From: Hominicoprocola fusiformis
GTDB taxonomy: Bacteria > Bacillota > Clostridia > Oscillospirales > Oscillospiraceae
DNA length: 32,000 nt
NCBI GenBank assembly: GCA_040095065.1
Contig: JBBNGO010000019.1
Span: 9,517 to 41,516 of the forward strand
Reading direction: 5' to 3'
A program made the translations under genes and the position numbers. Position 1 is the stretch's first letter. Every line of letters begins with the position of its first letter. The notes beneath the pieces were generated by a model. It was not told the origin of the DNA and searched no databases. It saw only the letters and a program-made list of their open reading frames with translations. Below, piece by piece: positions 4,892 to 27,971 of this stretch.

Positions 4892-4935
4892 GAGGACTAT
4901 AAATTCCAGTTTAACGAACAGGAGATGATGAACGC

Positions 4936-5145: not shown

Positions 5146-5164
5146 TAGGACGGAGGATAGAATA

Positions 5165-6211: not shown

Positions 6212-6216
6212 GGTCT

Positions 6217-7749: not shown

Positions 7750-7771
7750 GAAGAAATCGGAGGCGCAGAAG

Positions 7772-9280
7772 ATGAAGCAGCGCATATACATTGCAATCGA
7801 CCTGAAATCTTTCTATGCCTCCGTGGAATGCCGTGAGCGTGGCTTAGATCCTCTGGACACAAACCTCGTTGTCGCAGATGAGAGCCGGACGGACAAGACC
7901 ATCTGCCTTGCCGTTACTCCCTCCCTCAAAAGCTACGGCATCTCCGGACGCGGACGGCTGTTTGAAGTCAAGCAGCGTGTGAAGGAATCAAATGCCGGAC
8001 GGCAGCACGACGCGCCGGGACACAGGCTGGACGGCACATCACACTTCTTCTCGGAGCTGCAAGCAAACCCGTCTCTGGCGATTGACTTCATCATCGCGCC
8101 GCCTCGAATGGCGTACTACATGGAGTACAGCACCCGCATCTATCAGGTCTACCTCAAGTACATCGCGCCGGAGGACATCGTAGTCTACTCCATCGACGAG
8201 GTGTTCATGGACGTGACGGACTACCTGAACACCTACAAGCTCTCCGCCCATGATCTCGCCATGAAGATCATCCTCGATGTGCTTGAAACAACCGGCATCA
8301 CAGCAACCGCAGGAATCGGCACGAATCTTTTCCTCTGCAAAGTGGCAATGGACATTGTGGCAAAGCACATCCCCGCCGATAAGAACGGCGTCCGCATTGC
8401 AGAGCTGGATGAGATGAAGTTCCGACGTGAGCTTTGGTCTCATCAGCCTCTCACGGACTTCTGGCGCGTGGGTCGGGGCATTGCCAAGAAACTTGAGCAA
8501 AATGGGATGTTTACGATGGGCGATGTTGCCCTCTGTTCAGAGCGGAACGAGGACTTGCTTTACAAGCTGTTCGGCAAGAATGCGGAGTTGCTCATCGACC
8601 ATGCGTGGGGCTGGGAGCCTACGACCATTGAGGCAATCAAGGCGTACCGTCCCAGCTCCAACAGCCTCAGCTCCGGTCAGGTATTGCACTGTCCCTATGA
8701 GCCGCAGAAGGCGAAGCTGGTTGTCCGGGAAATGACGGACTTGCTTGTGCTGGACTTGGTGGACAAGGGGCTTGTCACCGATCAGATGGTTCTCACAGTT
8801 GGCTACGACATTGAGAACCTGACTGATCCGGCGCGACGGGCAAAGTATCACGGTGCGGTTGAGACAGATCATTATGGGAGGCAGATTCCGAAACAGGCGC
8901 ACGGCTCTATCAACCTCGACGGTCACACATCATCTACCCGCAAAATAATGTGTGCTGTGTCAGAACTCTTCGACCGGATTGTTGACAAGAATCTGCTTGT
9001 CCGCCGTATGTATGTTGTTGCAAATCATGTGCTGCCGGAAGCTGATGTACCGAAGAAAAACGACGGTGCAGTCCAGCTCGACCTCTTTACCGACTATGCC
9101 GCCGAAGAGGAAAAACAGAAAGCCGAAGATGCCGCTTTGGAGCGTGAGCGGAAGATACAAGCCGCCACGCTTGCCATCAAGAAGAAGTATGGAAAGAACG
9201 CCATCCTCAAGGCAATGAATCTTGAAGAAGGTGCAACCGCGAAAGACCGCAATGCGCAGATTGGAGGGCATAAGGCGTGA
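7772..9280 (+). CDS. Y-family (DinB/UmuC/UvrX-like) translesion DNA polymerase
   Basis: IYIAIDLKSFYASVECRERGLDP and YSIDEVFMDVTDY contain the catalytic Asp/Glu motifs. GIGTNLFLCKVAMD is also present. Followed by a YolD-like gene, as in the Bacillus uvrX-yolD and yqjW-yqzH pairs. Confidence 0.92.
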   Translation: MKQRIYIAIDLKSFYASVECRERGLDPLDTNLVVADESRTDKTICLAVTPSLKSYGISGRGRLFEVKQRVKESNAGRQHDAPGHRLDGTSHFFSELQANPSLAIDFIIAPPRMAYYMEYSTRIYQVYLKYIAPEDIVVYSIDEVFMDVTDYLNTYKLSAHDLAMKIILDVLETTGITATAGIGTNLFLCKVAMDIVAKHIPADKNGVRIAELDEMKFRRELWSHQPLTDFWRVGRGIAKKLEQNGMFTMGDVALCSERNEDLLYKLFGKNAELLIDHAWGWEPTTIEAIKAYRPSSNSLSSGQVLHCPYEPQKAKLVVREMTDLLVLDLVDKGLVTDQMVLTVGYDIENLTDPARRAKYHGAVETDHYGRQIPKQAHGSINLDGHTSSTRKIMCAVSELFDRIVDKNLLVRRMYVVANHVLPEADVPKKNDGAVQLDLFTDYAAEEEKQKAEDAALERERKIQAATLAIKKKYGKNAILKAMNLEEGATAKDRNAQIGGHKA

Positions 9281-9699
9281 ACGGAAAATACGACGAGATC
9301 ATGGGACTTCCTCACCACGTTTCCAAAACGCGACCACAAATGCCGATGTCAGATCGTGCAGCGCAGTTTGCGCCCTTTGCCGCCCTCACCGGCTATGATT
9401 CTGCAATCAAGGAAACCGGACGTCTGACCGACGAAAGGCTTGAGCTTGATGAGGGAGCCTTGACCGCTTTGAACATGAGGTATCAGCTCCTCATGGATGC
9501 CCTTGATGAAGAGCCGGAGGTTGAAATAACCTACTTCAAACCTGATGAGCGCAAAGCTGGCGGTGCGTATGTAACTGCAACCGGCGCAGTCATAAAGGTT
9601 GATGACTTTGAGCGCCTGATTACAATGCAGGACGGCACGAAGATTCCGATGGATGACATCTTAAGCATTGACGGAGAGCTGTTCTTGTCCTTAGAATAA
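9277..9699 (+). CDS. YolD-like protein (accessory to Y-family polymerase)
   Basis: RPQMPMSDRAAQFAPFAALTGYDSAIKE is the YolD-family signature. The GTG start overlaps the polymerase stop (GTGA); ATG 9301 is an alternative start. Confidence 0.8.
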   Translation: MNGKYDEIMGLPHHVSKTRPQMPMSDRAAQFAPFAALTGYDSAIKETGRLTDERLELDEGALTALNMRYQLLMDALDEEPEVEITYFKPDERKAGGAYVTATGAVIKVDDFERLITMQDGTKIPMDDILSIDGELFLSLE

Positions 9700-9741
9700 T
9701 GTCGCTTGCCATGCGACCAAATGAAGTGAATACCGAAGTAC

Positions 9742-9781
9742 AATATGACTGTAAGGTGAGACACCAAGCAGTCATATTTTT
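9742..9781 (+). terminator. Weak hairpin plus T-run between yolD-like and vWA genes (attenuator or partial terminator)
   Basis: AATATGACTG (9742-9751) pairs with CAGTCATATT (9769-9778) across a 17-nt loop, followed by a T-run through 9781. The stem is AT-rich, so this is a weak call. Confidence 0.3.
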
Positions 9782-9800
9782 ATATACGGAGGTACAAAAC

Positions 9801-10457
9801 ATGAGAAAGAACTTGACGGAGATCGTATTCATCCTTGATCGCAGCGGCTCTATGAGCGGACTGGAAACAGACACCATCGGAGGATTCAACTCCATGATTG
9901 AAAAGCAGAAAAAAGAGAATGGCGAGGCATTGATCTCTACCGTTCTCTTTGACAACGTGAGCGAGGTTATCCATGACCGTGTGCCGGTTCAGAAGGTGGA
10001 GCCGATGACCGACAGGGACTATTCCGTTCGCGGCTGCACCGCGCTTCTGGATGCTATCGGCGGAGCGATTCATCACATTGGAAATGTCCATAAGTACGCA
10101 AGAAAAGAGGATGTCCCTGAACACACACTGTTCGTCATCACAACGGATGGCATGGAGAATGCAAGCCGCCGTTATGACAGCGAGAAGGTCAAGAAGATGA
10201 TTGAACGACAGAAGAAAAAGTACGGCTGGGAGTTTCTTTTCCTCGGTGCAAACATTGATGCAGTTGAGACGGCAAAGCATTTTGGAATTGGAGCAGATCG
10301 AGCGGTCAATTACCACTCTGACCGCGAGGGAACGCAACTCAACTATGAAGTTCTGAGCGAAGCGGTTTCCGCTGTCCGATGCAGCGTACCACTGGGTACG
10401 AATTGGAAAAAACGTATTGATGAGGACTTCAATTCCAGAAAGGACGGGAGAAAGTAA
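9801..10457 (+). CDS. von Willebrand factor A (vWA) domain protein, cytoplasmic
   Basis: MRKNLTEIVFILDRSGSMSG carries the MIDAS DxSxS motif. GCTALLDA and FVITTDGMEN supply the remaining MIDAS Thr/Asp. ATG 9801 lies 6 nt after ACGGAGGT. No signal peptide. Confidence 0.85.
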   Translation: MRKNLTEIVFILDRSGSMSGLETDTIGGFNSMIEKQKKENGEALISTVLFDNVSEVIHDRVPVQKVEPMTDRDYSVRGCTALLDAIGGAIHHIGNVHKYARKEDVPEHTLFVITTDGMENASRRYDSEKVKKMIERQKKKYGWEFLFLGANIDAVETAKHFGIGADRAVNYHSDREGTQLNYEVLSEAVSAVRCSVPLGTNWKKRIDEDFNSRKDGRK

Positions 10458-11116
10458 TGAGAACAATCACCGTAAAAGGGACAGGCAATGTCTCCGCAAG
10501 ACCGGATTACATCATCCTATCCCTGAACATTGAAGTCTTATCTGAAACCTATGACCGCGCAATGTCGGAAGCTGCCGAGAGAATCGAAAGACTGCAAGGT
10601 GCCGCAGTCCGCGTTGGGTATCGCAAGGAAGACCTGAAAACCACGAGCTTTGATGTCCAGACAAGGTACGAGAATGTCAAGGATCGGCAAGGAAATTACA
10701 AGCGAGAGTTTGCCGGATATGCTTGCAGCTATCGCTTGAAACTTGCCTTTGACTTTGACAGCAAGCAGCTTGCAAAGGTCATTTCTGCGATTGCGGATTG
10801 TGGGGCGCAACCAGAACTCAGCATTGCGTTCACCGTGAAAAACCCGGCAAGAGTCAGCGAAGAGCTGCTGATCAATGCGACGGAGAACGCCAGGGCAAAG
10901 GCGGAGATTCTTTGCAAAGCATCAGGCAGTACGCTTGGGCAGTTGCTCAACATCGACTACAACTGGGGCGAACTCAATGTTTTTTCCAGAACAAGCTACG
11001 ATGTTGAAGACTGCATTCAGCCTCTCATGGCGATGAGCAAGTGCGCCGCACCTGAGATTGAGCCGGTTGATATTGATGTGACAGACACAGTGGCTTTCAC
11101 ATGGGAAATCCAATGA
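10457..11116 (+). CDS. SIMPL / DUF541 domain protein lacking a signal peptide
   Basis: MRTITVKGTGNVSARPDYIILSLNIEV...AMSEAAERIERL...NATENARAKAEILCKASG is the SIMPL (YggE-like) pattern. The start overlaps the vWA stop (TAATG). Confidence 0.78.
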   Translation: MRTITVKGTGNVSARPDYIILSLNIEVLSETYDRAMSEAAERIERLQGAAVRVGYRKEDLKTTSFDVQTRYENVKDRQGNYKREFAGYACSYRLKLAFDFDSKQLAKVISAIADCGAQPELSIAFTVKNPARVSEELLINATENARAKAEILCKASGSTLGQLLNIDYNWGELNVFSRTSYDVEDCIQPLMAMSKCAAPEIEPVDIDVTDTVAFTWEIQ

Positions 11117-11225
11117 TTTTTTGACTTTTTTGAAATCCGGTACTCAACAAACGCCCTTTTTGTGTCCGTTGTAAAGTGAAGGGACATTTCACGGAGGAAT
11201 CTTCGGGGAATACGTTTTGGGAGAT

Positions 11226-11305
11226 TAGCAAGCAAATCCGGTGAGTACCCACCGGAGAAAAATCAGTTAAGGAGACCCTGCCCTTAACATCAGATTTTTG
11301 CTTGT
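11226..11305 (+). other. Candidate oriT: nested inverted repeats upstream of mobC/relaxase
   Basis: Hairpin CCGGTG-AGTACC-CACCGG at 11238-11255. Hairpin GTTAAGG-N9-CCTTAAC at 11266-11288. Both are enclosed by an imperfect outer repeat, AGCAAGCAAATC (11227-11238) and GATTTTTGCTTGT (11293-11305). Nick site not identified. Confidence 0.45.
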
Positions 11306-11351
11306 TGGGATAGTCCCAAACCCTTCTAATCTTTACGACGGAGGGCGCAGC

Positions 11352-11681
11352 ATGGTACGAAGAACACGAGACATTCAGAAGAAGATTTGGCTGACACCAC
11401 AGGAAGAACGGACGATTGCAAAGAAGATGGAAATGATCGGCACAGAGAACTTCGGTGCGTATGCAAGGAAGATGCTGATTGACGGCTACATCATTGTCGT
11501 AGACTACACAGAGCAGAAAAAGCTCGCCGCCGAAATCAACAAGATCGGCGTGAACATCAATACCGTCTGCCGCAGGATCAACTCGACGGGACGATTCTAT
11601 CAGGACGATATTGACGAGCTGAAAGAAAAGATGGACGCGGTATGGCAGTTACTAAAATCAAAGCAATCCGAGGAACTTTGA
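11352..11681 (+). CDS. mobC: MobC-family relaxosome accessory protein
   Basis: MVRRTRDIQKKIWLTPQEERTIAKKMEMIGTENFGAYARKMLIDGYII...NKIGVNINTVCRRINSTG is the typical MobC pattern. ATG 11352 follows GGAGGG. The gene overlaps the relaxase start. Confidence 0.8.
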   Translation: MVRRTRDIQKKIWLTPQEERTIAKKMEMIGTENFGAYARKMLIDGYIIVVDYTEQKKLAAEINKIGVNINTVCRRINSTGRFYQDDIDELKEKMDAVWQLLKSKQSEEL

Positions 11682-13006
11682 GCAAGGCAATCGCGTACAT
11701 TCTGAATCCCGAAAAGACCGACGAGAAGCTGCTGGTCTCGTCCTACGGCTGTGCCAGCGAGACCGCAGCGCGGGAATTTGAATGGACGCGGAAAATAGCC
11801 GAGCAAAAAGGGATGACTCCGGTCAGGATCATAGCCCGTCATGTGATCCAGTCCTTTGAAATCGGAGAGGTCACGCCGGAGCTTGCCCACGAGATCGGCA
11901 AGCAGTTCGCAGATGAAATCCTCGAAGGAAAATATGAGTATGTGCTGACCACTCACATTGACAAAGACCATGTTCATAACCACCTGATTTTCAATGCGGT
12001 TGACTTCGTGGACTACCACGCATACAAGAGCTACAAGCGGATTTACTACGATATGCGCGAGGTCAGCGACCGGCTCTGTAAGGAAAACGGTCTCTCTGTT
12101 ATCCCTCCCTCTCAGAACAAAGGCATGAGCTACAAGGAGTACACCGAAGCCAAACGCGGCACGAGCTGGAAGCAGAAACTCAAGCAGACCATCGACCGGC
12201 TTGTCATCACGGCGAAGGACTACGATGATTTTCTGCGGCTCATGCAGGAAGCCGGTTATGAAATTAAACCCGGCAAATACATCTCCTTCCGCGCTGAAGG
12301 TCAGGAGCGGTTTACCCGTTCTAAGACCATCGGAGAGAACTACACCGAGGAACGCATCAAGGAGCGGATTGCCGGACGGACGCCCCGAAGAAGTCAGAGA
12401 CAGACCACGCCGAAGGGCATCTCTCTCATCGGAGATATTCAGGAGCGGATCAGGCTTATCGACAGCAAGGGTTATGAGCATAAATCAAAGCTCACTATCC
12501 TCAAGGAAGCGGCACGGACGCTCAACTATCTCACAGACAACAACTTGCTCCAATACGCCGATCTTGAGAAGAAGGTCGAGGATGTTCACAGCTCCTATGA
12601 TCGTACCGGCAAGGAGCTGAAAGGCGTTGAAGCGCGGCTGCGGGAAGTCCAGCCGCTTATCAAAAACATCTCCAACTACCAGCGCCTAAAACCTGTATAT
12701 GACGCTTTCCAGAAGGCAAAAGATAAGCCGGGTTTCAAGGCAAAGCATGAGGCAGAGCTTGTGATCTTCGAGGCGGCACGGAGTACGCTGCTTGCCATGC
12801 AGGGCGATGAAAAACTGCCGAGCTTGAAGACGCTGCAAGCGCAACAGCAGCGACTTCTCGATGAGCAACAGCGGCTCTATGATGAACGTGCGAAGCTCAA
12901 AAAAGAAGTAAAACAAATAGAGACGATCAAGTCTAATGTTGATACGTTTCTCGCTCCTTCTGCTGACCATGACCGTGATCATCTGCGCAGCACACAGCGC
13001 GAATAA
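11642..13006 (+). CDS. Relaxase / mobilization nuclease (MobA/VirD2 family, PF03432-type)
   Basis: N-terminus is MAVTKIKAIRGTLSKAIAYILNPEKT. The histidine triad is THIDKDHVHNHLIFNAVD. The C-terminus is coiled-coil. Confidence 0.92.
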   Translation: MAVTKIKAIRGTLSKAIAYILNPEKTDEKLLVSSYGCASETAAREFEWTRKIAEQKGMTPVRIIARHVIQSFEIGEVTPELAHEIGKQFADEILEGKYEYVLTTHIDKDHVHNHLIFNAVDFVDYHAYKSYKRIYYDMREVSDRLCKENGLSVIPPSQNKGMSYKEYTEAKRGTSWKQKLKQTIDRLVITAKDYDDFLRLMQEAGYEIKPGKYISFRAEGQERFTRSKTIGENYTEERIKERIAGRTPRRSQRQTTPKGISLIGDIQERIRLIDSKGYEHKSKLTILKEAARTLNYLTDNNLLQYADLEKKVEDVHSSYDRTGKELKGVEARLREVQPLIKNISNYQRLKPVYDAFQKAKDKPGFKAKHEAELVIFEAARSTLLAMQGDEKLPSLKTLQAQQQRLLDEQQRLYDERAKLKKEVKQIETIKSNVDTFLAPSADHDRDHLRSTQRE

Positions 13007-13395: not shown

Positions 13396-13464
13396 GTCCG
13401 GTTTTTCGTACAGCTCTTTTTGTAGAATAGTAAGTGTGAAACTATAACTTTGGAGGTTGCTGAA

Positions 13465-14967
13465 ATGGCTGAAAATAACACAAGCAATATCGGCTTTGAA
13501 AAACAAATCTGGGATGCGGCTTGCGTCCTGCGCGGAAACATCGACGCATCCGAATATAAGTCGGTCGTTCTCGGACTGATTTTCCTGAAATACATTTCAG
13601 ATCGCTTTGAGGCAAAGTACAAGGAGCTGGTTGAAGAAGGCGATGGATTTGAAGAAGACCAGGACGAATACACTGCCGAAAACATCTTCTTTGTCCCTGA
13701 GAATGCACGATGGAGCGCGATTGCTGCTGCCGCTCATACGCCGGAAATTGGCACGGTGATTGATGATGCAATGCGCAGTATTGAGAAAGAAAACAAGCGT
13801 CTCAAAGATATTCTTCCTAAGAACTTCGCCCGTCCAGAGCTGGACAAGCGGCGTCTTGGTGAAGTGGTTGATCTCTTCACCAATATTCAGATGATCGAGC
13901 ATGGAAACAGCAAGGACATTCTTGGTCGCACATACGAATATTGCCTCTCCAAGTTTGCCGAGCAAGAAGGCAAACTTGCCGGTGAGTTCTATACTCCCTC
14001 TTGCGTTGTGCGTACCCTTGTTGAAGTGTTGCAGCCGTTTAATGGGCGTGTTTATGACCCGTGCTGCGGCTCTGGCGGTATGTTTGTTCAGTCCGCAAAG
14101 TTCATCGAAAATCACGGCGGCAACATCAACAAGATTTCTGTTTTTGGTCAGGACTCTAACCCGACCACATGGAAGATGGCGCAGATGAATCTTGCCATTC
14201 GCGGTATTGAAGCCGACCTCGGCAAGTTTAATGCGGACACATTCTTTAACGATTGTCACCCGCAGCTCAAGGCAGACTTTATTATGGCGAATCCTCCCTT
14301 CAATCTTTCTGGCTGGGGTGCAGATAAACTCGTTGATGATGTCCGTTGGCAGTATGGTACGCCTCCTGCTGGAAATGCAAACTTCGCGTGGTTGCAGCAC
14401 ATGATCTGGCATCTCGCTCCGAATGGACGTATCGGTATGGTGCTTGCAAATGGTTCGCTTTCTTCGCAGTCCGGCGGTGAAGGTGAAATCCGCAAGAACA
14501 TTATCAATGCTGACCTTGTGGACTGTATCGTTGCAATGCCGACGCAGCTATTCTACACGACGCAGATTCCGGTATCGCTCTGGTTCCTTGCAAAGAACAA
14601 GAAGCAAAAAGGCAAAACGCTGTTCATCGACGCACGGAAACTCGGCACTATGGTTACGCGGAAGCTGCGCGAACTGACGGATGAAGACATCAAGAAAATT
14701 GCCGACACTTATAATGCCTTCGGTGATGGAACACTCGAAGATGAAAAGGGCTTCTGTGCTGTTGTCACTACACAGGACATTGCAAAGCAGGATTACATTC
14801 TCACTCCGGGACGCTATGTTGGTATTGAGGAACAGGAAGATGACGGCGAGCCGTTTGAAGAGAAAATGGGGCGTTTGACTTCTGAACTTTCTGAGCTCTT
14901 CGCAAAGTCCCATGAACTTGAGACGCAGATCAAAGAACGACTGGGGGCGATTGGATATGGGCTATGA
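13465..14967 (+). CDS. hsdM: Type I restriction-modification system, DNA methyltransferase subunit M
   Basis: N-terminus is IGFEKQIWDAACVLRGNIDASEYKSVVLGLIFLKYISDRF. Other motifs are FYTP, the SAM motif DPCCGSGGM and the catalytic NPPF (FIMANPPFN). ATG 13465 follows GGAGG. Confidence 0.95.
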   Translation: MAENNTSNIGFEKQIWDAACVLRGNIDASEYKSVVLGLIFLKYISDRFEAKYKELVEEGDGFEEDQDEYTAENIFFVPENARWSAIAAAAHTPEIGTVIDDAMRSIEKENKRLKDILPKNFARPELDKRRLGEVVDLFTNIQMIEHGNSKDILGRTYEYCLSKFAEQEGKLAGEFYTPSCVVRTLVEVLQPFNGRVYDPCCGSGGMFVQSAKFIENHGGNINKISVFGQDSNPTTWKMAQMNLAIRGIEADLGKFNADTFFNDCHPQLKADFIMANPPFNLSGWGADKLVDDVRWQYGTPPAGNANFAWLQHMIWHLAPNGRIGMVLANGSLSSQSGGEGEIRKNIINADLVDCIVAMPTQLFYTTQIPVSLWFLAKNKKQKGKTLFIDARKLGTMVTRKLRELTDEDIKKIADTYNAFGDGTLEDEKGFCAVVTTQDIAKQDYILTPGRYVGIEEQEDDGEPFEEKMGRLTSELSELFAKSHELETQIKERLGAIGYGL

Positions 14968-15520
14968 AACGTATCGTATTGCTGACCTAATTGATGAAAT
15001 TGCGATGGGTCCATTCGGATCAAATATTAAAGTCTCGTGTTTTGTGGATAGTGGCGTACCTGTCCTAAATGGTAGTAATCTTGAGGGCTTTTCTCTATCC
15101 GAAAAGACATTCCGCTATGTCACAAGGAAAAAAGCTGACTCTCTTAACAAGGCAAATGCACATCGCGGGGATATTGTAATAACACACAGAGGAACGCTTG
15201 GGCAAATAGTGTTTATTCCTCAAGATTCAAAATATGACCGGTATGTGATTTCGCAATCTCAGTTTAGGGTGCGATGCAACGACAAGGTTTTGCCCGAATA
15301 CCTTGTCTATTACTTCCACACTCCAATAGGACAGCATAAACTTCTAAGCAATGCCTCACAGGTTGGCGTCCCTGCATTGGCGAGACCATCTTCGACCTTT
15401 CAACAGATTGAGGTCGTATTGCCTGAATTAAGTATTCAGAAATGTGTTGTCGAGATTATTTCCACAATCCAAAAAAAGATTGTGAACAATCAAGAGCTAA
15501 ACGATAATTTAGCAGCTTAG
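14957..15520 (+). CDS. hsdS: Type I R-M specificity subunit, half-size (single TRD 'A1', ends ...NDNLAA*)
   Basis: MGYETYRIADLIDEIAMGPFGSNIK...PALARPSS...LPELSIQKCVVEIISTIQKKIVNNQELNDNLAA. There is one target-recognition domain, then the central conserved helix, truncated 2 codons after the 15-bp core repeat. The start overlaps the hsdM end by 11 nt. Confidence 0.85.
   Translation: MGYETYRIADLIDEIAMGPFGSNIKVSCFVDSGVPVLNGSNLEGFSLSEKTFRYVTRKKADSLNKANAHRGDIVITHRGTLGQIVFIPQDSKYDRYVISQSQFRVRCNDKVLPEYLVYYFHTPIGQHKLLSNASQVGVPALARPSSTFQQIEVVLPELSIQKCVVEIISTIQKKIVNNQELNDNLAA
15498..15512 (+). repeat. Shufflon core repeat copy a (TAAACGATAATTTAG)
   Basis: Exact 15-mer encoding (L)NDNL at the end of half hsdS A1. 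It is followed by CAGC, then TTA (reverse complement of the stop of cassette B2). Confidence 0.85.
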
Positions 15521-16203
15521 AGCTGGACAGCAGACACATCGATCTCGCCAGACATCAGTTTGGGCAGCAAATTATCTCTCAATGTCGCAAGCGATTGATT
15601 CTGCTCTTCCAAAATACGTTGCTGTGCAAAGATAGGAGCGCAAAAGTCGCTGAATTTGGCAAGAGTTTCAGCGTCAGGAATAACCGCCGGGACATTTTTC
15701 ATAGTGCTGCCAGATACTTCTTTGAATGTTGACCCGGATGCCATGCCTTCAATGACCGGGAGAGTGTTTTTCAAAAAGAAGTAAACAAATGGTGTTCCAA
15801 TTTCCGGCTTAGGCACAACCGATTTGAAACCTTGATTTGTTGTTACTTCACCAGCGGCGATAGCAATATAACCTATTGGCGCACGAGATGAGAACAACAC
15901 TGTTCCTTCTGGCATGATTGCTGCGCTGCTGTTCTTCAAACCAAGTTCAGTTATGTCATTCTCACCATGAGAAACGAACTTCGACTTGTTGATAGATAAA
16001 TCTTTCGGGGTTATCCATGCTATACCGGACTCCGTGTAATACTCAGGTTTAGCTTTTGAAGGTGTACTGCCTCCAACAACAGTACCAAGATCGCTAATTG
16101 TTCCGATAGCCCATTCTGGATCAGCATTATCAACAAATAATTCTTGAAAATAGGATTGAGCTTGCTGCTCTAAATTATCGTTTACCGTCTGAATAACTCT
16201 CAC
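15517..16203 (-). CDS. hsdS: Inverted hsdS half-cassette (TRD 'B2' plus C-terminal conserved region), apparently silent in this orientation
   Basis: Minus-strand translation is ...VNDNLEQQAQSYFQELFVDNADPEWAIGTISDLGTVVGGSTPSK...ITPKDL...LFSSRAPIGY...LATLRDNLLPKLMSGEIDVSAVQL*. It begins with the core repeat and lacks a TRD1. Only a GTG at 16203 could act as a start. The track extension to 16389 is antisense to the integrase 5' end. Confidence 0.8.
   Translation of the reverse strand: MRVIQTVNDNLEQQAQSYFQELFVDNADPEWAIGTISDLGTVVGGSTPSKAKPEYYTESGIAWITPKDLSINKSKFVSHGENDITELGLKNSSAAIMPEGTVLFSSRAPIGYIAIAAGEVTTNQGFKSVVPKPEIGTPFVYFFLKNTLPVIEGMASGSTFKEVSGSTMKNVPAVIPDAETLAKFSDFCAPIFAQQRILEEQNQSLATLRDNLLPKLMSGEIDVSAVQL
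16170..16184 (-). repeat. Shufflon core repeat copy b (inverted)
   Basis: CTAAATTATCGTTTA is the reverse complement of the core. The extended match to copy c is 25 nt with 1 mismatch (16160-16184 vs 17785-17809). Confidence 0.85.
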
Positions 16204-16273
16204 CAGTGGCGAGAGTTTTACAAAAGGGACTGCCACTGAATGTCGTTCTCTTACCTCGAAAGGAGACACGACA

Positions 16274-17257
16274 ATGACAGAACAACTCATCACGGAGATA
16301 CAGCGAAAAATGCTGCCGTATCTTAACAACGAACAACTCATGCACCTTCGGGATGCAATGGCTGAGACATTGGAAGGGGCAACGATCACCTATGATAGTG
16401 GCTCAATTCCAGCAGACGAAGCAGATGCAGTCGAAGCATTTATCACGGCAAAGCGGATCGAAGGCTGTTCGGAGAAAACCCTGAGCTACTACCGGAAGAC
16501 GATTGAGGCTCTAATTGCCGGAGTTGGAAAGGCTGTGCGACAGATCACCACAGATGATTTGCGCCGCTATCTGACAAACTATCAAGTTCAGCGCAGGTCG
16601 AGCAAAGTGACCATAGACAACATCCGCCGGATACTGTCCAGCTTCTTCTCATGGCTTGAAGATGAGGATTTCATTGTGAAAAGCCCGGTACGCCGTATTC
16701 ACAAAGTTAAGACTGCAAAGGTGGTCAAGGACACCTACACCGATGAAGTGTTAGAGCTGATGCGTGACAACTGCACAACAGCACGAGACTTGGCGATGAT
16801 TGATCTTCTGGCTTCCTCTGGAATGCGTGTTGGTGAGCTGGTCACACTAAACCGCGAAGACATCAACTTCAATGAGCGCGAATGCGTTGTTATCGGCAAG
16901 GGTAATAAAGAACGATTGGTCTATTTCGACGCAAGGACGAAAATCCACCTTCAAAACTACCTTGAGGGGCGAACGGATGAAAACCCAGCTTTGTTTGTTT
17001 CCCTGAAAGCTCCCTTTGACCGATTGATGATTGGCGGAGTGGAGACACGCCTTCGGGAGCTGGGAAAGCGTCTGAATATCCCGAAGGTTCACCCTCACAA
17101 GTTCAGGCGTACACTGGCTACAACTGCCATAGACAAAGGAATGCCCATAGAGCAAGTCCAGCAGCTCTTAGGGCATCAGAAAATCGACACCACCATGCAC
17201 TATGCAATGGTGAAGCAGCAGAATGTGAAGCTGGCACATAGAAAATACATCGGTTAG
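16274..17257 (+). CDS. Tyrosine site-specific recombinase (XerC/XerD-like) of the hsdS shufflon
   Basis: The catalytic set is readable: SSGMRVGEL (Arg), HPHKFRRTLAT (H-x-x-R) and LLGHQKIDTTMHYA (His...Tyr). There is an N-terminal SAM-like core-binding domain. AAGGAG RBS. The gene sits between hsdS cassettes. Confidence 0.92.
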   Translation: MTEQLITEIQRKMLPYLNNEQLMHLRDAMAETLEGATITYDSGSIPADEADAVEAFITAKRIEGCSEKTLSYYRKTIEALIAGVGKAVRQITTDDLRRYLTNYQVQRRSSKVTIDNIRRILSSFFSWLEDEDFIVKSPVRRIHKVKTAKVVKDTYTDEVLELMRDNCTTARDLAMIDLLASSGMRVGELVTLNREDINFNERECVVIGKGNKERLVYFDARTKIHLQNYLEGRTDENPALFVSLKAPFDRLMIGGVETRLRELGKRLNIPKVHPHKFRRTLATTAIDKGMPIEQVQQLLGHQKIDTTMHYAMVKQQNVKLAHRKYIG

Positions 17258-17258
17258 G

Positions 17259-18425
17259 ATGGTGGGTAGTATGAATGGAACAATATATATGCCCGTTGGT
17301 GAAGTTTGTTCGTCTATTTCGGACACTTATCGCGAAAAAAAGAATATGGTGACGCTTATCAATACCTCGGACGTTTTAGAGGGTAGAGTTCTCAACCACG
17401 AACGAGTTCCAAACTCCAATTTGAAAGGGCAGTTCAAGAAGACTTTTCAGCGAGACGATATTTTATATAGCGAGATCCGTCCACAGAACAGGCGGTTTGC
17501 CTATGTGGATTTTTCGCCCATAGACTATATCGCTTCAACTAAACTGATGGTAATTCGTGCAAAAAAGGATGTGGTATCTCCTAAGTACCTATACTATTTC
17601 TTGAAGAATAGTTCCACAGTTGCAGAACTTCAACTGTTAGCTGAAACGCGATCTGGCACATTCCCTCAGATTACATTTTCCGAAGTTGCCAATTTGACCA
17701 TACCCGTTCCTTCGCTTGCTGTACAAGAAGTTATCGTACAAACGATGCAATGCCTCGAAGATAAGATCACCTGCAACGAGCAGATAAACGATAATTTACA
17801 GCAGCAAGCAGCCGCATTGTTTTCAAGCCTCTATGATCGGTCAAACACCGAGGTTAGATTCACCGATTTGATACAGATACTCGGCGGTGGGACACCGAAA
17901 ACAGGCGAAAACACTTATTGGAACGGTAATATTGCCTTCTTTACCCCAAAAGATGTTGGCATACCATACACCCTTATCACAGAAAAGACTATCTCAAAAG
18001 AAGGCCTTTCACATTGTAACAGCCGACTGTATCCTGTGAACACCGTTTTCGTCACTGCAAGAGGCACTGTTGGTAAAGTTGGTATGTCCGGAGTTCCGAT
18101 GGCCATGAACCAATCCTGCTACGCGCTTGTCGGTAAAGAGACGCATCAACTTCTTGTATATTTCTACACACTCAAAGCTGTTGATAGGCTCAAGCACAAA
18201 GCAAGTGGAGCCGTATTTGATGCGATTACCACCAGAGATTTTGAATCAGAGCAAATCATGAAACTCTCTGATGATGATGCTACGGCGTTTCTCCGTGTTG
18301 CAGAACCCATGTTTCAGGAGGTACTTAACAACAACATCGAAAACTTGCGACTTTCAACACTACGGGATTCATTGCTACCTAAGCTCATGTCCGGCGAGAT
18401 TGATGTCTCCGCCGTCCAACTCTAA
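17259..18425 (+). CDS. hsdS: Type I R-M specificity subunit, full length (TRD 'C1' - NDNL core - TRD 'C2')
   Basis: TRD1 is followed by ...CNEQINDNLQQQAAALFSSLY. TRD2 is (GGGTPKTGENTYWNGNIAFFTPKDV...VTARGTVGKV), followed by ...LSTLRDSLLPKLMSGEIDVSAVQL*. The gene starts 1 nt after the recombinase stop. ATG 17271 is an alternative start. Confidence 0.9.
   Translation: MVGSMNGTIYMPVGEVCSSISDTYREKKNMVTLINTSDVLEGRVLNHERVPNSNLKGQFKKTFQRDDILYSEIRPQNRRFAYVDFSPIDYIASTKLMVIRAKKDVVSPKYLYYFLKNSSTVAELQLLAETRSGTFPQITFSEVANLTIPVPSLAVQEVIVQTMQCLEDKITCNEQINDNLQQQAAALFSSLYDRSNTEVRFTDLIQILGGGTPKTGENTYWNGNIAFFTPKDVGIPYTLITEKTISKEGLSHCNSRLYPVNTVFVTARGTVGKVGMSGVPMAMNQSCYALVGKETHQLLVYFYTLKAVDRLKHKASGAVFDAITTRDFESEQIMKLSDDDATAFLRVAEPMFQEVLNNNIENLRLSTLRDSLLPKLMSGEIDVSAVQL
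17785..17798 (+). repeat. Shufflon core repeat copy c (TAAACGATAATTTA, 14/15)
   Basis: Located in the central conserved region of full-length hsdS. Followed by C, then AGCAGCAAGC, which matches the flank of copy b. Confidence 0.85.
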
Positions 18426-18429
18426 GCCG

Positions 18430-18444
18430 CTAAATTATCGTTTA
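18430..18444 (-). repeat. Shufflon core repeat copy d (inverted, 4 nt after hsdS stop)
   Basis: CTAAATTATCGTTTA. With its flank it shares 17 nt with copy b (CTAAATTATCGTTTACC). Read on the reverse complement, it mirrors the copy a context: TAAACGATAATTTAGC[G/A]GCTTAGAG. Confidence 0.85.
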
Positions 18445-18464
18445 CCTGATTTGGAGGTTGTACC

Positions 18465-18824
18465 ATGTTTGATAAAGTTCAGGAGAGCTTGAAAAAAAGC
18501 AAAGACGAGCGCCAGAAAAAGCGTCTTGAAAAGGAACGGGTTCGTCTTGAGAAAGCCGCAGCAGAAGCAGTTCGTGAGAAAGAGCGGCTTCAACAGGAGG
18601 CGGAAAAGATACAGGCTGAAAAAGACCGTCTTCTCTCCCTCGATGATAAGGGGCTGATGGTAGAATTGATTCTGGCAGTGCGAGGTCTATACTCACAAAT
18701 GGAGTACATTCAAAGTCAGCAGGCTTCTTTATCCGAGCGGGTTGACGATATTGAGTCGGACATCTCTTCCATCCGCAGCGATATTTCAGATTTGGAAAGC
18801 AGACTGGGCTCGTCCGATCAGTAA
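18465..18824 (+). CDS. Hypothetical 119-aa coiled-coil protein
   Basis: GGAGG RBS. The protein is heptad-rich and charged (KKRLEKERVRLEKAAAEAVREKERLQQEAEKIQAEKDRL ... DDIESDISSIRSDISDLESRL). No enzymatic motif. Confidence 0.7.
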   Translation: MFDKVQESLKKSKDERQKKRLEKERVRLEKAAAEAVREKERLQQEAEKIQAEKDRLLSLDDKGLMVELILAVRGLYSQMEYIQSQQASLSERVDDIESDISSIRSDISDLESRLGSSDQ

Positions 18825-18847
18825 AACTCAATGAAGGAGGCGCAGAC

Positions 18848-20671
18848 GTGATTATTTCACCACAATCTCTTGATACAAACCTAAGTCAGCTTTTAGCGGA
18901 GGTTAAGTCCGGCTCAATGCAGTTGCCGGAGTTTCAGCGCGACTGGACTTGGGATGATAACCGAATTAGAGGAATTATCGCCAGTTTGTCGCAAGGCTAC
19001 CCTATGGGTGCCATTATGCGGCTACAATACGGTAATCCGGACATTCAATTCAAATACCGCACAATTACGGGCGTAAAAGGCGTCTCAGTAAAGCCGGAGC
19101 ATTTGATTCTTGATGGACAGCAGCGACTTACTTCCATCTATCAGGCAACATCCTCTAAAGAGCCGGTCTCGACCAAAACAGAAAAAGGCAAGGCTATTAA
19201 GCGTTATTACTATCTCTCAATGGAGAAGTGCCTTGACGATGATGAGGATCGTTTTGATGCAGTCTTGTCTATTCCGGAAGACCGCAAGATCAAAGAAAAC
19301 TTTGACCGTGATGTGAAGCTCGACCTCTCAACCAGAGAATATGAATACGAGAATAAGCTGTTCCCGGTCAATATTGTGTTCGATAGCAACGCCGTTATGG
19401 ACTGGTTCATGGGCTACATGACGCACTATGGAATGAAGCCGGAGGCAATGGACGAGTTCAAGCGTTTTCAGGCAGATGTGCTGAATACAATTTCCGGGTA
19501 TAAGCTGCCTGTGATTACGCTGGACAAGTCCACGCCGCGAGAGGCAGTGTGCAAGGTGTTTGAGAACGTCAATACCGGTGGTGTTCCTCTCACGGTGTTT
19601 GAGCTTGTTACCGCAACTTATGCCACAAGAGACTTTGACCTGAGAAAAGACTGGGTGCAGTGTCGAAATACAATTTGCGGTTTCGGTGACACGCTGAGAA
19701 CAGACCTGTTCGATGGGATTGATGAGACTACCTTCCTGACAACGGTTTGTCTCTATACAAGCTATTTGAACAAGCAGTCTGGAAAGACAAACACAATCTC
19801 CTGCAAAAAGAAAGATGTTCTGGGACTTCCTTATGAATCGTACATAGCGAACCGGGATGCAGTGCTGTCTGGGTTCAAAATCGCAAAGGAGTTTCTTCTT
19901 CGGGATCAGTGCGTTTTCCGTCAAAGAGATTTGCCCTATACAACGCAGTTGATTCCACTTGCGGCAATCTGCGCTGTTCTCGGAAAATCCAAATGCAATG
20001 AGCCAAACACAATCAAAACTCTTTCTCGGTGGTATTGGTGCGGGATTTTGGGTGAGATGTATGGCGGTGCGAACGAAACCCGCTATGCCTATGACATTGA
20101 GGACATGGTTGAAGAGGTCAATGGACGTCCGAATGCAATGCACACGATTAACAGCGCAGTCTTTTCTTCTACGCGGCTACTAACCCTTCAAACTCGCTTG
20201 AGCGCGGCATATAAAGGTATAATGGCTCTTCTTTACAAGGAGAAGTGTCGTGACTTTATGAACAACACGACGATTGACATTGTAAACAGTATGCTTGAGT
20301 CTCCGGATATTCACCATATATTCCCCGAAGCATATTGCGAGAAAATGGGCATCAAGCGCGAACGGTATAATTCCATCATTAACAAGACCCCGATTCTTCC
20401 AGCCACCAACCGCTCGATTGGCGGAAATGCGCCGAGTGAGTATCTGGGGGCAATTCTAAAGAAGGTTGATGGACTGACCGAGAATGAGTTGCAAGCACGG
20501 GTGGAATCGCACTTTATCAACTTTGCAGAATTGAAGGCAGATGACTTCAATGGCTATTTCATCGACAGAGCAAAAAGCCTTCTAAACCTAATTGAAAAAG
20601 CGATGAATAAGCCCGTCACTGACAGAGATGCAGAAAACACGTTGGATCAGTTCGGGGCGAGTCTGGCGTAA
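18848..20671 (+). CDS. DUF262 (ParB-like NTPase/nuclease) plus C-terminal DUF1524-like His-Me finger protein, GmrSD-like
   Basis: LPEFQRDWTWDDNRIRGIIASLSQGYPMG and ILDGQQRLTSIYQ are DUF262 DGQQR signatures. The C-terminus has DIHHIFPEAYC...NKTPILPATNRSIGGNAPSEY (HNH-like). GTG start lies 7 nt after AAGGAGG. Confidence 0.88.
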   Translation: MIISPQSLDTNLSQLLAEVKSGSMQLPEFQRDWTWDDNRIRGIIASLSQGYPMGAIMRLQYGNPDIQFKYRTITGVKGVSVKPEHLILDGQQRLTSIYQATSSKEPVSTKTEKGKAIKRYYYLSMEKCLDDDEDRFDAVLSIPEDRKIKENFDRDVKLDLSTREYEYENKLFPVNIVFDSNAVMDWFMGYMTHYGMKPEAMDEFKRFQADVLNTISGYKLPVITLDKSTPREAVCKVFENVNTGGVPLTVFELVTATYATRDFDLRKDWVQCRNTICGFGDTLRTDLFDGIDETTFLTTVCLYTSYLNKQSGKTNTISCKKKDVLGLPYESYIANRDAVLSGFKIAKEFLLRDQCVFRQRDLPYTTQLIPLAAICAVLGKSKCNEPNTIKTLSRWYWCGILGEMYGGANETRYAYDIEDMVEEVNGRPNAMHTINSAVFSSTRLLTLQTRLSAAYKGIMALLYKEKCRDFMNNTTIDIVNSMLESPDIHHIFPEAYCEKMGIKRERYNSIINKTPILPATNRSIGGNAPSEYLGAILKKVDGLTENELQARVESHFINFAELKADDFNGYFIDRAKSLLNLIEKAMNKPVTDRDAENTLDQFGASLA

Positions 20672-20687: not shown

Positions 20688-23600
20688 ATGGCAGGATATT
20701 TTACAGAATCAAATTACGAGAACGCTGTCTTGCAGCTTCTCAATGAAGAACTGGGCTATAACTATATCTATGGACCGGACGTGGAGCGCGATTATCACTC
20801 GCCGCTTTATGAGGATGTTCTGCTGCCTTCCTTGCAGCGGATCAACAAGAGCCTGCCTATGGACGCTCTGACGGAGGCAATCTATAAGCTCAAGAACTTT
20901 GAAACTGGAACGCTCTTGCAGAAGAACATGGTCTTTATGGACTACCTCCAAAACGGAGTCCCGGTAAAATACTATGACAAGGGTGAAGAACGCTCTACCC
21001 TTGTTTACCTTGTAGACTTCAAAAATCCTGCCAGTAACGAGTTCACAGTTGCGAATCAATGGACTTTCATTGAGAACTCCGAAAAAAGACCAGATGTGAT
21101 TCTCTTTGTCAATGGTCTCCCGCTCGTCATTGTGGAGTTGAAGTCTCCGTCCCGCGAAGAAACCGACGCTTCCGCAGCATACCGCCAGCTCCGGAACTAT
21201 ATGTATGAGATCCCCTCTATGTTCATTTATAATGCGGTATGTGTCATGAGCGACTTGACCACTTCAAAGGCTGGTACAATCACGTCCGGCGAAGACCGCT
21301 TTATGGAGTGGAAAACAACAGACGGCAGCTATGAGAATACGCAACACGCATCATTTGACACATTCTTTGTAGGACTGTTTGAGAAGACCCGCTTCCTTGA
21401 CATCGTGAAAAACTTCATCTGCTTTAATGTGGATGGACAGAATACATTCAAGATACTCGCTGGGTATCATCAGTATTTTGCAGTCAAAAAGGCGATTGAG
21501 TCTACGAAGCACGCGACTGTGACAGACGGCAAGGGCGGCGTCTTCTGGCATACACAGGGCAGCGGAAAATCGTTGTCTATGGTCTTCTATGCTCATTATC
21601 TGCAAGAAGCGTTAGAAAGCCCCACTATCGTTGTCATTACCGACCGTAACGATCTGGACGACCAGCTTTACGGACAATTCGCCCGCTGCAAGGACTTCCT
21701 CCGGCAAACGCCGCAGCACGCTGAGAGCCGCAAGAATCTGAAAGAACTGCTTGCAAACAGACAGGCAAACGGCATAATCTTCACGACCATGCAGAAGTTT
21801 GAAGAAAGCAACGAAGCTCTTTCGGAACGCCGGAACATTATCGTGATGGCTGATGAAGCGCATCGTGGGCAATATGGTCTCAATGAGAAGGTTGTGGTCA
21901 AGCAAAAGGACAACGGCGAAGTCGAGGCGAAAACCGTTATCGGCACTGCCCGCATTATAAGAGACACGCTTCCTAATGCGACCTACATTGGATTCACCGG
22001 AACACCGATCTCCACAAAAGATCGCAGCACACGAGAAGTCTTCGGTGATTACATCGACATCTATGATATGACACAGGCAGTTGAAGACGGAGCTACAAGA
22101 CCCGTCTATTACGAGAGCCGTGTGATTCACCTGAAACTCGACGAGAACACCCTCCATCTGATCGATAATGAGTATGATATTATGGCTGACAACGCCGATC
22201 CGTATGTCATTGAAAAGAGCAAAAAGGAACTTGGTCAGATGGAAGCAATCCTCGGTGCCGACCAGACGATCAATTCCTTGGTAAATGACATTCTTGATCA
22301 TTACGAGAATTACCGTGAGAATATCCTGACCGGCAAGGCGATGATCGTTGCTTATTCGCGTCCCATAGCAATGAAGATTTATAAGCGCATTCTTGAGCTA
22401 CGCCCAGCGTGGACGGAAAAGATTGCAGTGGTCATGACGCAAGGCAATAACGATCCCGAAGAATGGCGTGAGATTATCGGCAACAAAGCTCATAAGGACG
22501 ATATGGCGCGGAAATTCAAAGACAACAACTCTCCGCTGAAAATCGCCATCGTCGTGGATATGTGGCTGACCGGCTTTGATGTTCCCTCCCTTGCTACGAT
22601 GTATGTCTATAAGCCGATGGCTGGACACAACCTGATGCAAGCTATCGCCCGCGTCAATCGTGTCTTCAAAGATAAAGAAGGCGGTTTGGTTGTCGATTAC
22701 GTTGGTATTGCGGCTGCACTGAAACAGGCAATGAACGACTATACTGCCAGAGACAAGAAGAACTATGGTGATACAGATGTAAGCAAGGCTGCATATCCGA
22801 AGTTCCTTGAAAAGCTCTCTATTTGCAGAGATTTGTTCCACGGATTCAGTTATGAGAAATTCATGACCGGAAGCGACCTTGACAGGGCGAAGCTCATCAG
22901 CGGCGGAGTGAACTTCATACTCGGCAAGAGTGTTGCAGAGTACGAGCTTCCCGACCACGAGAAGACACAGAATGTGTTTATCAAAGAAGCCCTGCTTCTC
23001 AAGCAGGCACTTTCGCTGTGCAGCAGCTTGGTAGACGAGCAAACTCGCATGGAGGCAGCTTTCTTCGAGTCCGTAAGAACAATGACCGTGCGCTTGGTTT
23101 CAGGCGGTACCGGAAAGAAGTTTACGCTTCCGGAAGTAAATGAGCGCATTAACGAGCTTTTGAAGCACAGTATCAAAAGCGAAGGCGTTATCAACCTTTT
23201 CTCTGATGTCCAGACTGAGTTTTCGTTGTTCGATCCGAAGTTCCTTGAAGAAGTGGCAAACATGAAGGAGAAGAATCTTGCAGTCGAACTCCTGAAAAAA
23301 CTGATTTCCGAACAGGTCTCTGTTTACCGCCGAACAAATATCGTCAAGTCTGAGAAGTTCTCCGAAATCATTCAGAGCGCAATGAACCGCTATTTGAACG
23401 GAATGCTGACCAACGAGGAAGTCATTCAAGAATTACTCAAGCTGGCGAAAGACATTGCCGCTGCTGCCGCCGAGGGTGAAAAACTCGGATTGACAACGGA
23501 CGAACTTGCTTTCTATGATGCTCTGACGAAGCCGCAAGCAATCAAGGACTTTTACGAGCATGATGAGCTTATTGCTATCACGAAAGAACTGACAGATTTG

Positions 23601-25194: not shown

Positions 25195-25223
25195 CCTTGG
25201 TTTCTATTCCGGGAGGAATGTGG

Positions 25224-27272: not shown

Positions 27273-27349
27273 TGATACAAACGGCAGTCTCTTCGGAAAC
27301 ATAGAGCAACCCCCCCAAAAAAACGACAATCAGAAAACGGAGGTGTATC

Positions 27350-27961: not shown

Positions 27962-27971
27962 GACACGGAAA

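Follow-up and report, generated by a model that had tools for sequence, protein, structure and literature searches.

The re-assortment of the specificity (hsdS) genes in restriction-modification systems of Type I by site-specific recombination is a mechanism class well known in pathogens, and the locus described here brings to this class a new architecture, which is widespread in gut commensals. It lies in a stretch of 32,000 nucleotides (nt) of Hominicoprocola fusiformis DNA (contig JBBNGO010000019.1, positions 9,517 to 41,516; hereafter the window), where two hsdS genes are placed on either side of a tyrosine recombinase gene between hsdM and hsdR. In the window the hsdM-linked hsdS is a half gene, A1, for a first target-recognition domain (TRD1), and the recombinase-linked one is a TRD1 half, C1, fused to a cassette for a second domain (TRD2), C2. 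A further TRD2 cassette, B2, lies reversed behind A1, and four copies of one short core sequence (cores a to d, in this order) border the two cassettes. Very probably, the locus is a Type I operon that extends from hsdM to hsdR, is carried by a mobilisable or conjugative element of gut Clostridia, and itself encodes the recombinase that rearranges its specificity genes.

Several described systems resemble it in part. The pneumococcal tvr locus (SpnIV, recombinase TvrR; Kwun et al. 2018, PMC6265443) has the same order of hsdM, TRD sequences, recombinase, TRD sequences and hsdR. It likewise shows a core common to two repeats, one short and at the midpoint and one longer and at the tail end, deletion and circular forms with the recombinase (circles are only suggested here), and an RNA structure upstream of the recombinase, namely an attenuator that limits its expression in tvr and a pseudoknot with a hairpin over the Shine-Dalgarno (SD) sequence that may do so here. 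However, all tvr repeats are direct and act by excision and re-integration, whereas the cores of the present locus alternate in orientation (> < > <) and inverted states are seen. Further, both N- and C-terminal TRD sequences move in tvr, as opposed to TRD2 cassettes only in the present locus, in which C1 can invert together with the recombinase and each TRD1 toggles between a full-length and a half gene. Additionally, tvr includes a phd-doc toxin-antitoxin pair, but no phd-doc open reading frames (ORFs) were found within 15520-18465. The ivr/cod locus (SpnD39III; CreX/PsrA; PMC4190663, PMC4948785) likewise encodes a tyrosine recombinase that inverts hsdS segments, has one repeat of only 15 bp, and yields six alternative HsdS proteins. 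There, one expressed hsdS is accompanied by silent partial copies, three repeat pairs (15, 85 and ~300 bp) are present, both TRD1 and TRD2 are swapped, and the alleles are all full-length; here, in contrast, a single core stands at four ports, two of them expression and two of them parking sites, and half-gene states occur. The locus belongs to neither the ivr/SpnD39III type nor the all-direct-repeat type of tvr.

It does display the features by which Huang et al. (2020; PMC7672463) recognise hsdS invertons, i.e., at least two hsdS genes with an invertase homologue, hsdS sequences between inverted repeats, and both orientations of the repeat-flanked segment, which here occur across independent assemblies and isolates. 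The same authors, in a survey, describe "clade-2 invertase" loci, widespread in Firmicutes, in which hsdS genes stand in mixed orientation, inversions would mostly truncate HsdS, and the recombinases are suggested to act in both inversion and excision. As far as a comparison by description goes, ON/OFF switching was predicted for those loci, and a four-port, two-cassette logic, a single core, a two-codon stop or a leader RNA form no part of the account. NgoAV of Neisseria gonorrhoeae also switches between a two-TRD HsdS, which reads an asymmetric site, and a form with one TRD that terminates in the central helix, dimerises (M2S2) and reads a palindrome; unlike the present case, its switch is a poly-G frameshift rather than recombination, and the activity of the half, demonstrated there, is argued here from analogy only. 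As at the present locus, site-specific inversions recombine hsdS halves into several specificities in the hsd loci of Mycoplasma pulmonis and in the phase-variable Type I system of Bacteroides fragilis. Each locus of the former has a pair of hsdS genes, both subject to change, and relies on sites of two kinds (vip and hrs) and on a recombinase encoded elsewhere. In the latter, several silent halves go with a single expression site; to our knowledge, neither has been described with non-coding parking ports or programmed half products. A literature search yielded no paper on the present core, element or logic, the core sequence, looked for in full texts in both orientations, led to unrelated papers only, and a search on hsdS inversion in Faecalibacterium gave nothing relevant. 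As far as the searched literature shows, the family, which is abundant in human gut commensals, has not been dissected.

Inspection of the window shows three exact copies of the 15-mer TAAACGATAATTTAG and a fourth that agrees in 14 of 15 positions (Table 1), giving the consensus TAAACGATAATTTA(G/C). The count of four, at up to two mismatches, compares with an expectation of 0.05 and was reached by none of 100 shuffles. As a preliminary description of the window had proposed, the cores form inverted brackets around the TRD2 cassettes with the recombinase between them, and Pfam and NCBIfam matches bear out the genes concerned; all four places given for the copies were right, except that copy c ends at 17799 rather than 17798, its mismatch being the last base. 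Core a ends the half hsdS of 187 amino acids (aa) as ...ELNDNLAA* (stop at 15518-15520), core b forms the head of the minus-strand B2 (NDNL-EQQAQSYFQELF...), so that B2 has its tail against core a and its head against core b, and core d begins 4 nt past the stop codon of C2 (TAA, 18423-18425). The contexts at the two tails are alike, TAAACGATAATTTAGC[A/G]GCTTAGAG, the repeat shared by cores b and c extends to 25 nt with one mismatch (96% identity), both as had been described, and the flank of core b, GAGAGTTATTCAGACGG, is fixed across all related loci. What had been missed is a longer inverted repeat of 97 nt and 78% identity, whose arms include cores a and d.

The proposed mechanism would operate with four fixed ports, each ending in the 14-nt core TAAACGATAATTTA. 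Two of these are the 3' ends of TRD1 half genes (A1 after hsdM, C1 after the recombinase) and two are non-coding (b upstream of the recombinase, d upstream of orf119), with two mobile TRD2 cassettes, B2 and C2, each held between two ports. The head of a cassette extends the reading frame past NDNL, and its tail, read backwards, supplies two codons and a stop; TRD1 joined to a head hence encodes a full-length HsdS, and TRD1 joined to a tail a half HsdS with a clean end. Any two cores are predicted to recombine and so to swap the attachments of their ports: a×b or c×d would flip one cassette, b×c the segment of recombinase and C1, and a×d the whole block, and the direct pairs, a×c or b×d, would excise as a circle, or delete, 2.27 kb comprising recombinase, TRD1 and cassette. 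The preliminary description omitted these direct-repeat reactions, which lead to recombinase-less deletions and possibly also yield circles. In silico, the a×b inversion gives an in-frame A1-B2 of 402 aa and the c×d inversion a C1 ending in ...INDNLAA*.

The six proteins predicted by this model were built and looked up by exact sequence in public contigs. All six exist verbatim, i.e., the four full-length and two half-size products that had been foreseen: A1-B2 (402 aa) in 283 contigs, A1-C2 (393 aa) in 487, C1-C2 (384 aa) in 749, C1-B2 (393 aa) in 476, and the half forms of A1 (187 aa) and C1 (178 aa) in at least 1000 contigs each. Their sources include Faecalibacterium prausnitzii L2-6, Brotocaccenecus cirricatena, Coprococcus intestinihominis, Ligaoa zhengdingensis and a Lachnospiraceae isolate. 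Contigs encoding the exact recombinase (a protein indexed in 2881 assembly blocks), A1-B2, C1-C2 or A1-C2 were then retrieved and the window modules mapped onto them (public loci are cited below by L-numbers). In every mapped locus the port flanks, namely the end of A1, the sequence upstream of the recombinase, the end of C1 and the sequence upstream of orf119, are constant, and variation is confined to the sequence between cores; every rearrangement breakpoint maps to a core. The modules, ~100% identical, appear in seven arrangements. That of the window (A half, B2 reversed, recombinase, C1-C2) recurs in L004, L007 and L021-L030. The second (A half, C2 reversed, recombinase, C1-B2) is found in L002, L003, L005 and L009, the third (A1-C2, recombinase, C half, B2 reversed) in L006, L233 and 11 similar places, and the fourth (A1-B2, recombinase, C half, C2 reversed) in L011 and others. 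In the fifth both genes are full-length (L015, L235), and in the sixth the recombinase and C1 are inverted relative to hsdM (L014, L240, L139). In the seventh, hsdM-A1-cassette leads directly to orf119, and the recombinase, C1 and one cassette are gone (L012, L231, L232). These recombinase-less, "locked" loci consist of hsdM, a full-length hsdS, one core and orf119; such loci make up 4 of the 48 contigs read in the two look-ups, and their structure is the product expected from recombination between direct cores. Thus B2, as a unit of 650 nt and at 100% identity, recurs in either slot and either orientation, and C2 is also present in other slots and orientations. Since isolate or complete genomes carry several of these arrangements (L009, L019, L236 and the accessions of F. 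prausnitzii L2-6), they are not assembly artefacts.

These loci also allow the individual reactions to be appraised. The full-length A1-B2 predicted from a×b is present as such, with both genes full-length in the fifth arrangement. The truncated C1 predicted from c×d exists as a protein, but the both-half state to which this inversion of the window would lead was not seen for the window alleles and accounts for 2 of 95 complete loci in the family. The b×c flip of recombinase and C1 is seen in the sixth arrangement and likewise in L208, and its predicted product C1-B2 is common; however, the commonest C1-B2 loci are unflipped, so that they require a pair of inversions, a×d and b×c, or some other path to the same result. 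Lastly, A1-C2, which had been expected from sequential events, is abundant, and inter-locus exchange of cassettes is evident in the loci of the second arrangement, in L006 and in L011.

The position of the exchange can be narrowed further. The last base of the 15-mer is G with B2 (NDNL-E) and C with C2 (NDNL-Q), and it follows its cassette in 1712 of 1720 contigs (487:2 for A1-C2, 749:5 for C1-C2 and 476:1 for C1-B2). As base 15 travels with the cassette, the crossover lies inside the first 14 nt. A scan of species-representative genomes with the recombinase returned 427 relatives; of these the best 80 (69-100% identical) were examined, and 57 have the complete > < recombinase > < layout. The core variants among the 57 are AAACGATAATTTA (33 loci), AAATGATAATTTA (18), AAACAATAATTTA (3) and AAACGATCATTTA (1), and within a locus the four 13-mers are identical in 55 of 57 cases, both non-coding copies included. 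The variant positions are all in the central CGATAA, and the flanking TAAA and TTTA are invariant and mutually inverted; beyond these no dyad symmetry between port-side and cassette-side flanks was found by eye. Identity is thus kept at the DNA level, as is expected of recombination partners, and the site is probably TAAA-[CGATAA]-TTTA with a 6-bp overlap. A counter-proposal, that the cores are a mere conserved coding motif for the NDNL of the HsdS central helix and play no part in recombination, draws on the fact that the core does encode NDNL in the hsdS frames. It deserves practically no credence: half of the copies are non-coding, variants such as the synonymous AAT for AAC recur in all four copies of a locus in the same 55 loci, and every breakpoint falls at a core; the non-coding copies, the co-variation and the linkage of base 15 are sufficient to refute it. 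One metagenome contig (L002) has an extra A in its port b copy (TAAAACGATAATTTA, 5896-5910), which could have come from faulty sequencing or be a scar at a place free of coding constraint.

A metagenome scan for the recombinase-upstream flank together with the core retrieved 120 human-gut contigs from different assemblies (L111-L230). They have the recombinase in common, many other TRD1 alleles occur, and 172 TRD2 cassettes fall into 24 types at 90% identity; this diversity behind an identical recombinase flank implies that the cores also bound the exchange of cassettes between elements. Such inter-element exchange, together with the finding of one arrangement per long contig and the strong skew of the census given below, could be taken to mean that the arrangements are fixed strain differences, arising from rare recombination or horizontal exchange, as opposed to ongoing phase variation. 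However, loci of unlike arrangement are no more diverged than like ones: over 5.9 kb of fixed flanks, those of other arrangements are 99.7-99.9% identical to the window, and L004, which has the same arrangement, is no closer. The breakpoints lie within 14 nt, which is too short for RecA-type recombination, and an intact recombinase with co-varying sites is kept across the 57 species. Further, 41 of 376 core sites are no more than 60 nt away from a contig end, against 1.8% expected, i.e., contigs break at cores ~6× more often than expected, and in pure-culture assemblies (L031, L048, L107) the middle segment forms a contig of its own that ends exactly at the cores. In B. cirricatena CLA-AA-H272 this contig has 1600 nt, from the first base past core b to the last before core c; in F. 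intestinale CLA-AA-H281 it has 1666 nt and its ends are 27-nt inverted repeats containing the core; in Eubacterium sp. OM08-24 it has 1668 nt. Fixed differences are, on this balance, quite improbable, and switching is presumably frequent enough to count as phase variation. Moreover, ~10 of the 120 metagenome contigs have layouts that are impossible for a single linear state, as is expected from mixed populations or circles. Core rearrangement also explains the fragmentation of assemblies at the locus in these genomes.

With regard to the route, it is conceivable that cassette traffic runs mainly via excision and re-integration of a circle carrying recombinase, TRD1 and cassette, as at tvr, over successive inversions. 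Cores a and c, and cores b and d, are direct repeats, the recombinase-less loci represent the corresponding deletion products, and L006 equals the window with its cassettes swapped and unflipped, an outcome which one excision and re-integration gives. Three contigs of 2.2-2.3 kb (L136, L182, L201) are one-turn circular permutations of the 2.27-kb recombinase-TRD1-core-cassette-core unit, and L135 is a double turn of the recombinase-TRD1-cassette unit. These four could be excised circles, tandem copies or assembly-graph cycles; no terminal overlaps of at least 15 nt were found on the cycle-like contigs, and mapping gives a 10-nt overlap or gaps of 16-95 nt, which is suggestive and does not prove circles. 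A tandem recombinase-TRD1-cassette unit is also present in an isolate, Lacrimispora sp. 210928-DFI.3.58 (L110), whose six-site locus at 4773-10416 has two 329-aa recombinase genes, three TRD1 genes, all truncated, and three cassettes, all reversed; the one-turn contigs and this tandem unit fit excision and re-integration, short of proof. On the other side, the flipped middle segments, seen in ~10% of loci, are inversion intermediates, cycle-like contigs can be graph artefacts of mixed populations or duplicated cassettes, and the characterised tvr repeats are all direct, whereas the cassettes here are held between inverted cores. We regard a predominance of the circular route as unlikely.

Two features of the family bear on the meaning of the half genes, the first being the form of the junctions. 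Past NDNL, the reading frame is either long, with over 170 codons (head), or meets a stop behind exactly two (tail). The metagenome set has the two-codon stop at 193 of its 377 sites and the species set at 127 of 271, with intermediate lengths at ~15 sites, such that it is kept at 320 of ~335 tail junctions (~95%) across many cassette types. Its origin is the end of the cassette, ...CTC TAA GC(C/T) G, to which the reversed core is joined and whose opposite strand reads ...GC(G/A) GCT TAG; the stop is retained in variants with TAA or TGA.

The second feature is the distribution of states, for which a census was taken of contigs with all four sites in known orientation ("A" and "C" here denoting the hsdM-linked and recombinase-linked hsdS with any TRD1 allele). 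A half with C full was found in 26 metagenome and 24 species loci, and A full with C half in 9 and 17, respectively, the latter with 2 more of unknown orientation. Both genes are full in 5 metagenome and no species loci, both half in none and 2, and the middle segment is flipped in 7 and 3. Of 95 complete loci, 84 have their cassettes mutually inverted, compared with 50% if the 16 linear states were equiprobable (Fisher p = 2e-14 for the orientation bias, relatedness being ignored). A stricter rule, that there is always one full and one half gene and that the recombinase is never flipped, held for the first 11 of 11 loci and was rejected on account of both-full (L015, L235), both-half (L081, L110) and flipped (L014, L240, L139) loci; it survives as a strong bias. 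When the cassettes have the same orientation, their heads, tails and cores would become direct repeats around the recombinase, from which deletion or excision would be expected instead of inversion. The one-full-one-half pattern is therefore explicable by deletion-prone same-orientation states without any function for the half.

This leads to the most serious alternative, to which we give somewhat under an even chance: the half HsdS is an inactive by-product, the pattern results from deletion of same-orientation states (in which heads of 25 nt and tails of ~100 nt act as direct repeats), and the two-codon stop merely blocks antisense translation. The excess of mutually inverted cassettes and the three recombinase-less deletions are in line with it, as are two precedents: activity in pneumococcal tvr is confined to the hsdS upstream of the recombinase (PMC6265443), and an NgoAV HsdS truncated so far that its helix is too short has no activity (bioRxiv 10.64898/2026.01.10.698759). 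However, it sits less easily with the exact conservation of the two-codon stop, including its other stop codons, and with the persistence of L081 and L110, in which every TRD1 is truncated. Further, the half HsdS has one TRD and most of the central helix, as its truncation point corresponds, in an alignment to 1YF2 (Methanocaldococcus jannaschii HsdS), to a place in the last quarter of the central helix, and so most of the dimerisation helix is kept; truncated HsdS proteins of NgoAV, EcoDXXI and EcoR124I form dimers active on symmetric (palindromic) sites, the activity of the NgoAV half depending on helix length (bioRxiv 10.64898/2026.01.10.698759). By analogy, the present half subunits may dimerise to read symmetric sites. 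The preliminary description had surmised that the cleanly terminated off state is designed; the conservation of the stop across the family agrees with this, but the stability explanation suffices without a function of the half.

Beyond the sites, products, arrangements and exchange point, one may tentatively consider a programmed toggle of two genes, in which each TRD1 would alternate between a full-length HsdS for an asymmetric site and an active half HsdS dimerising on a symmetric site, at a rate set by a hitherto undescribed pseudoknot and SD-sequestering RNA in the recombinase leader, on an element of broad host range. Taken as a whole this is a possible reading, but a rather doubtful one. 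Several points count against the main account of the locus itself. The states are far from equally frequent, as shown by the 84 of 95 mutually inverted loci and a flipped middle in only ~10 of 95, and hence some reactions must be slow or some states selected against. Metagenome contigs can be chimeric at the shared 650-nt cassettes, the co-existence of orientations within one clone is read from assembly breaks only, the local recombinase is the presumed rather than the demonstrated catalyst of the exchanges, and the activity of the halves is argued from other systems. If the toggle were real, cells would normally express one specificity of each kind, different halves might heterodimerise, and six or more specificities would be available from two cassettes, which would make the locus a widespread and uncharacterised source of variation, in epigenetic state and in phage defence, among human gut Clostridia; active halves would couple asymmetric and symmetric specificities in one switch. 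Mixed methylomes are predicted in isolates, together with variable barriers to phage and to genetic tools in gut anaerobes that are hard to transform, and the locus offers a small, defined pair of recombinase and site along with a candidate regulatory RNA.

The latter is the 89-nt leader between core b and the recombinase start, which folds better than shuffles (z = -2.56) and is conserved in relatives down to 69% recombinase identity. Its structure, written from an alignment of 28 sequences (A1; not to be confused with the half gene), comprises a 5-bp stem P1, a 7-bp pseudoknot P2 between the P1 loop and a downstream GCCACUG, and a 12-bp hairpin P3, in which UCUCUU pairs with the AAGGAGA ribosome-binding site. 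With slid partners and 500 shuffles as controls, pairing is kept in 95% of cells over the 28 sequences, compared with 40-65% for the slid partners, and compensatory changes occur in 12 of 24 pairs, a number reached by 0 of 500 shuffles; indeed, no shuffle attains any of the covariation measures. The frequent G-U pairs indicate that the sense strand is the folding strand. An Rfam search of 15400-18600 at E <= 1 returned nothing. By analogy with the attenuator upstream of tvrR, the leader may limit synthesis of the recombinase and hence the switching rate. The notion that GAGAG of P1 acts as an anti-sequestor of the SD hairpin was rejected, as P1 covaries to GGGUG or GGAAG and the SD partner stays UCUCU.

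The best 80 relatives are mostly Oscillospiraceae, Ruminococcaceae and Lachnospiraceae from human and animal guts, and the hosts of the family include Faecalibacterium, Gemmiger, Coprococcus and Ruthenibacterium, among others. Outside Clostridia, close relatives of the recombinase and of the four-site locus were seen in Desulfovibrio (L093, L094; that from Desulfovibrio piger is an isolate), a Synergistaceae metagenome-assembled genome (MAG; L063), an Enterococcus MAG (L102) and Bacteroidota MAG bins (L034, L041, L082); these could reflect real transfer across phyla or errors of MAG binning.

Table 1. Coordinates of the features of the locus in the window
Feature	Position	Strand	Remarks
hsdM	13450-14967	+	Pfam N6_Mtase (PF02384) 6e-112, HsdM_N (PF12161) 3e-28
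A1 half hsdS (expression port a)	14957-15520	+	Methylase_S 7e-10; TRD1 and most of the central helix, NDNL-AA-stop; overlaps the end of hsdM
Extended inverted repeat, left arm	15495-15591	.	core and conserved hsdS 3' tail read backwards
Core a	15498-15512	+	TAAACGATAATTTA + G; closes the half hsdS
B2 TRD2 cassette	15513-16169	-	Methylase_S 4e-20; reversed, silent here
Core b	16170-16184	-	non-coding parking port upstream of the recombinase
Invertible middle segment	16185-17784		recombinase and C1
Recombinase leader	16185-16273	+	structured; P1, pseudoknot P2, hairpin P3
P1	16197-16201 with 16211-16215		5-bp stem
P2	16204-16210 with 16232-16238		7-bp pseudoknot
P3	16241-16252 with 16261-16273		12-bp hairpin
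Tyrosine recombinase	16274-17257	+	327 aa; Pfam Phage_integrase 1.5e-33, SAM-like N-domain
C1-C2 full-length hsdS	17271-18425		
C1 TRD1 of second hsdS	17271-17784	+	expression port c
Core c	17785-17799	+	last base C not G; middle of the full-length hsdS
C2 TRD2 cassette	17800-18429	+	Methylase_S 2.8e-33 over two stretches (full hsdS); forward, fused to C1
Extended inverted repeat, right arm	18351-18447	.	78% complementary to 15495-15591
Core d	18430-18444	-	non-coding parking port 20 nt upstream of orf119
orf119 and GmrSD_N-domain protein (607 aa)	18465-20671	+	between hsdS and hsdR
GmrSD_N protein	18848-20671	+	Pfam; Type IV restriction-like
hsdR	20688-23777	+	1029 aa; HSDR_N, SWI2_SNF2, ResIII and T1RH-like_C domains
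ArdA antirestriction-polyvalent protein	29656-31485	-	609 aa

The assignment of the genes in Table 1 to a Type I system follows from the HsdM domains, a two-TRD HsdS and the helicase-nuclease domains of HsdR. The C1-C2 product has two Methylase_S stretches and matches the HsdS structures 1YF2, 5YBB, 3OKG and 7BST. The hsdM ORF is given from its start at 13450, and gene callers in related loci (L001-L030) pick an ATG from which the product has 500 aa. By NCBIfam, the recombinase passes the cut-off of the XerA-like tyrosine recombinases, and it is intact, the catalytic R...K...HxxR...H...Y being readable in its sequence. The coiled-coil-like, 119-aa orf119 product has no family match in Pfam. 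Together with the GmrSD_N gene it accompanies the locus in L032, L033, L035, L037, L038 and L085 (recombinase 96-100% identical); in the same range of identity, L034, L036 and L031 are without the two genes or too short to tell, and more distant relatives have other genes or none in this position.

The core includes GATAAT, a hexamer like a -10 element, which together with an upstream TTGTGA or GTGAGA resembles a promoter directed into the cassette at each of ports a and b (15480-15508 on the plus strand, 16203-16174 on the minus strand); a scan for promoters and terminators was uninformative, with a site count no higher than in shuffles. The genes around the locus (7772-13006 and 23803-31485) point to mobile-element cargo; among them are a relaxase and its NikA-like partner, a Y-family polymerase, macro-domain and AlkZ-related proteins, a NYN-domain protein and a DEAD_2 helicase. 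They also include that of the ArdA protein, and thus an anti-restriction gene and a variable Type I system are carried on one element.

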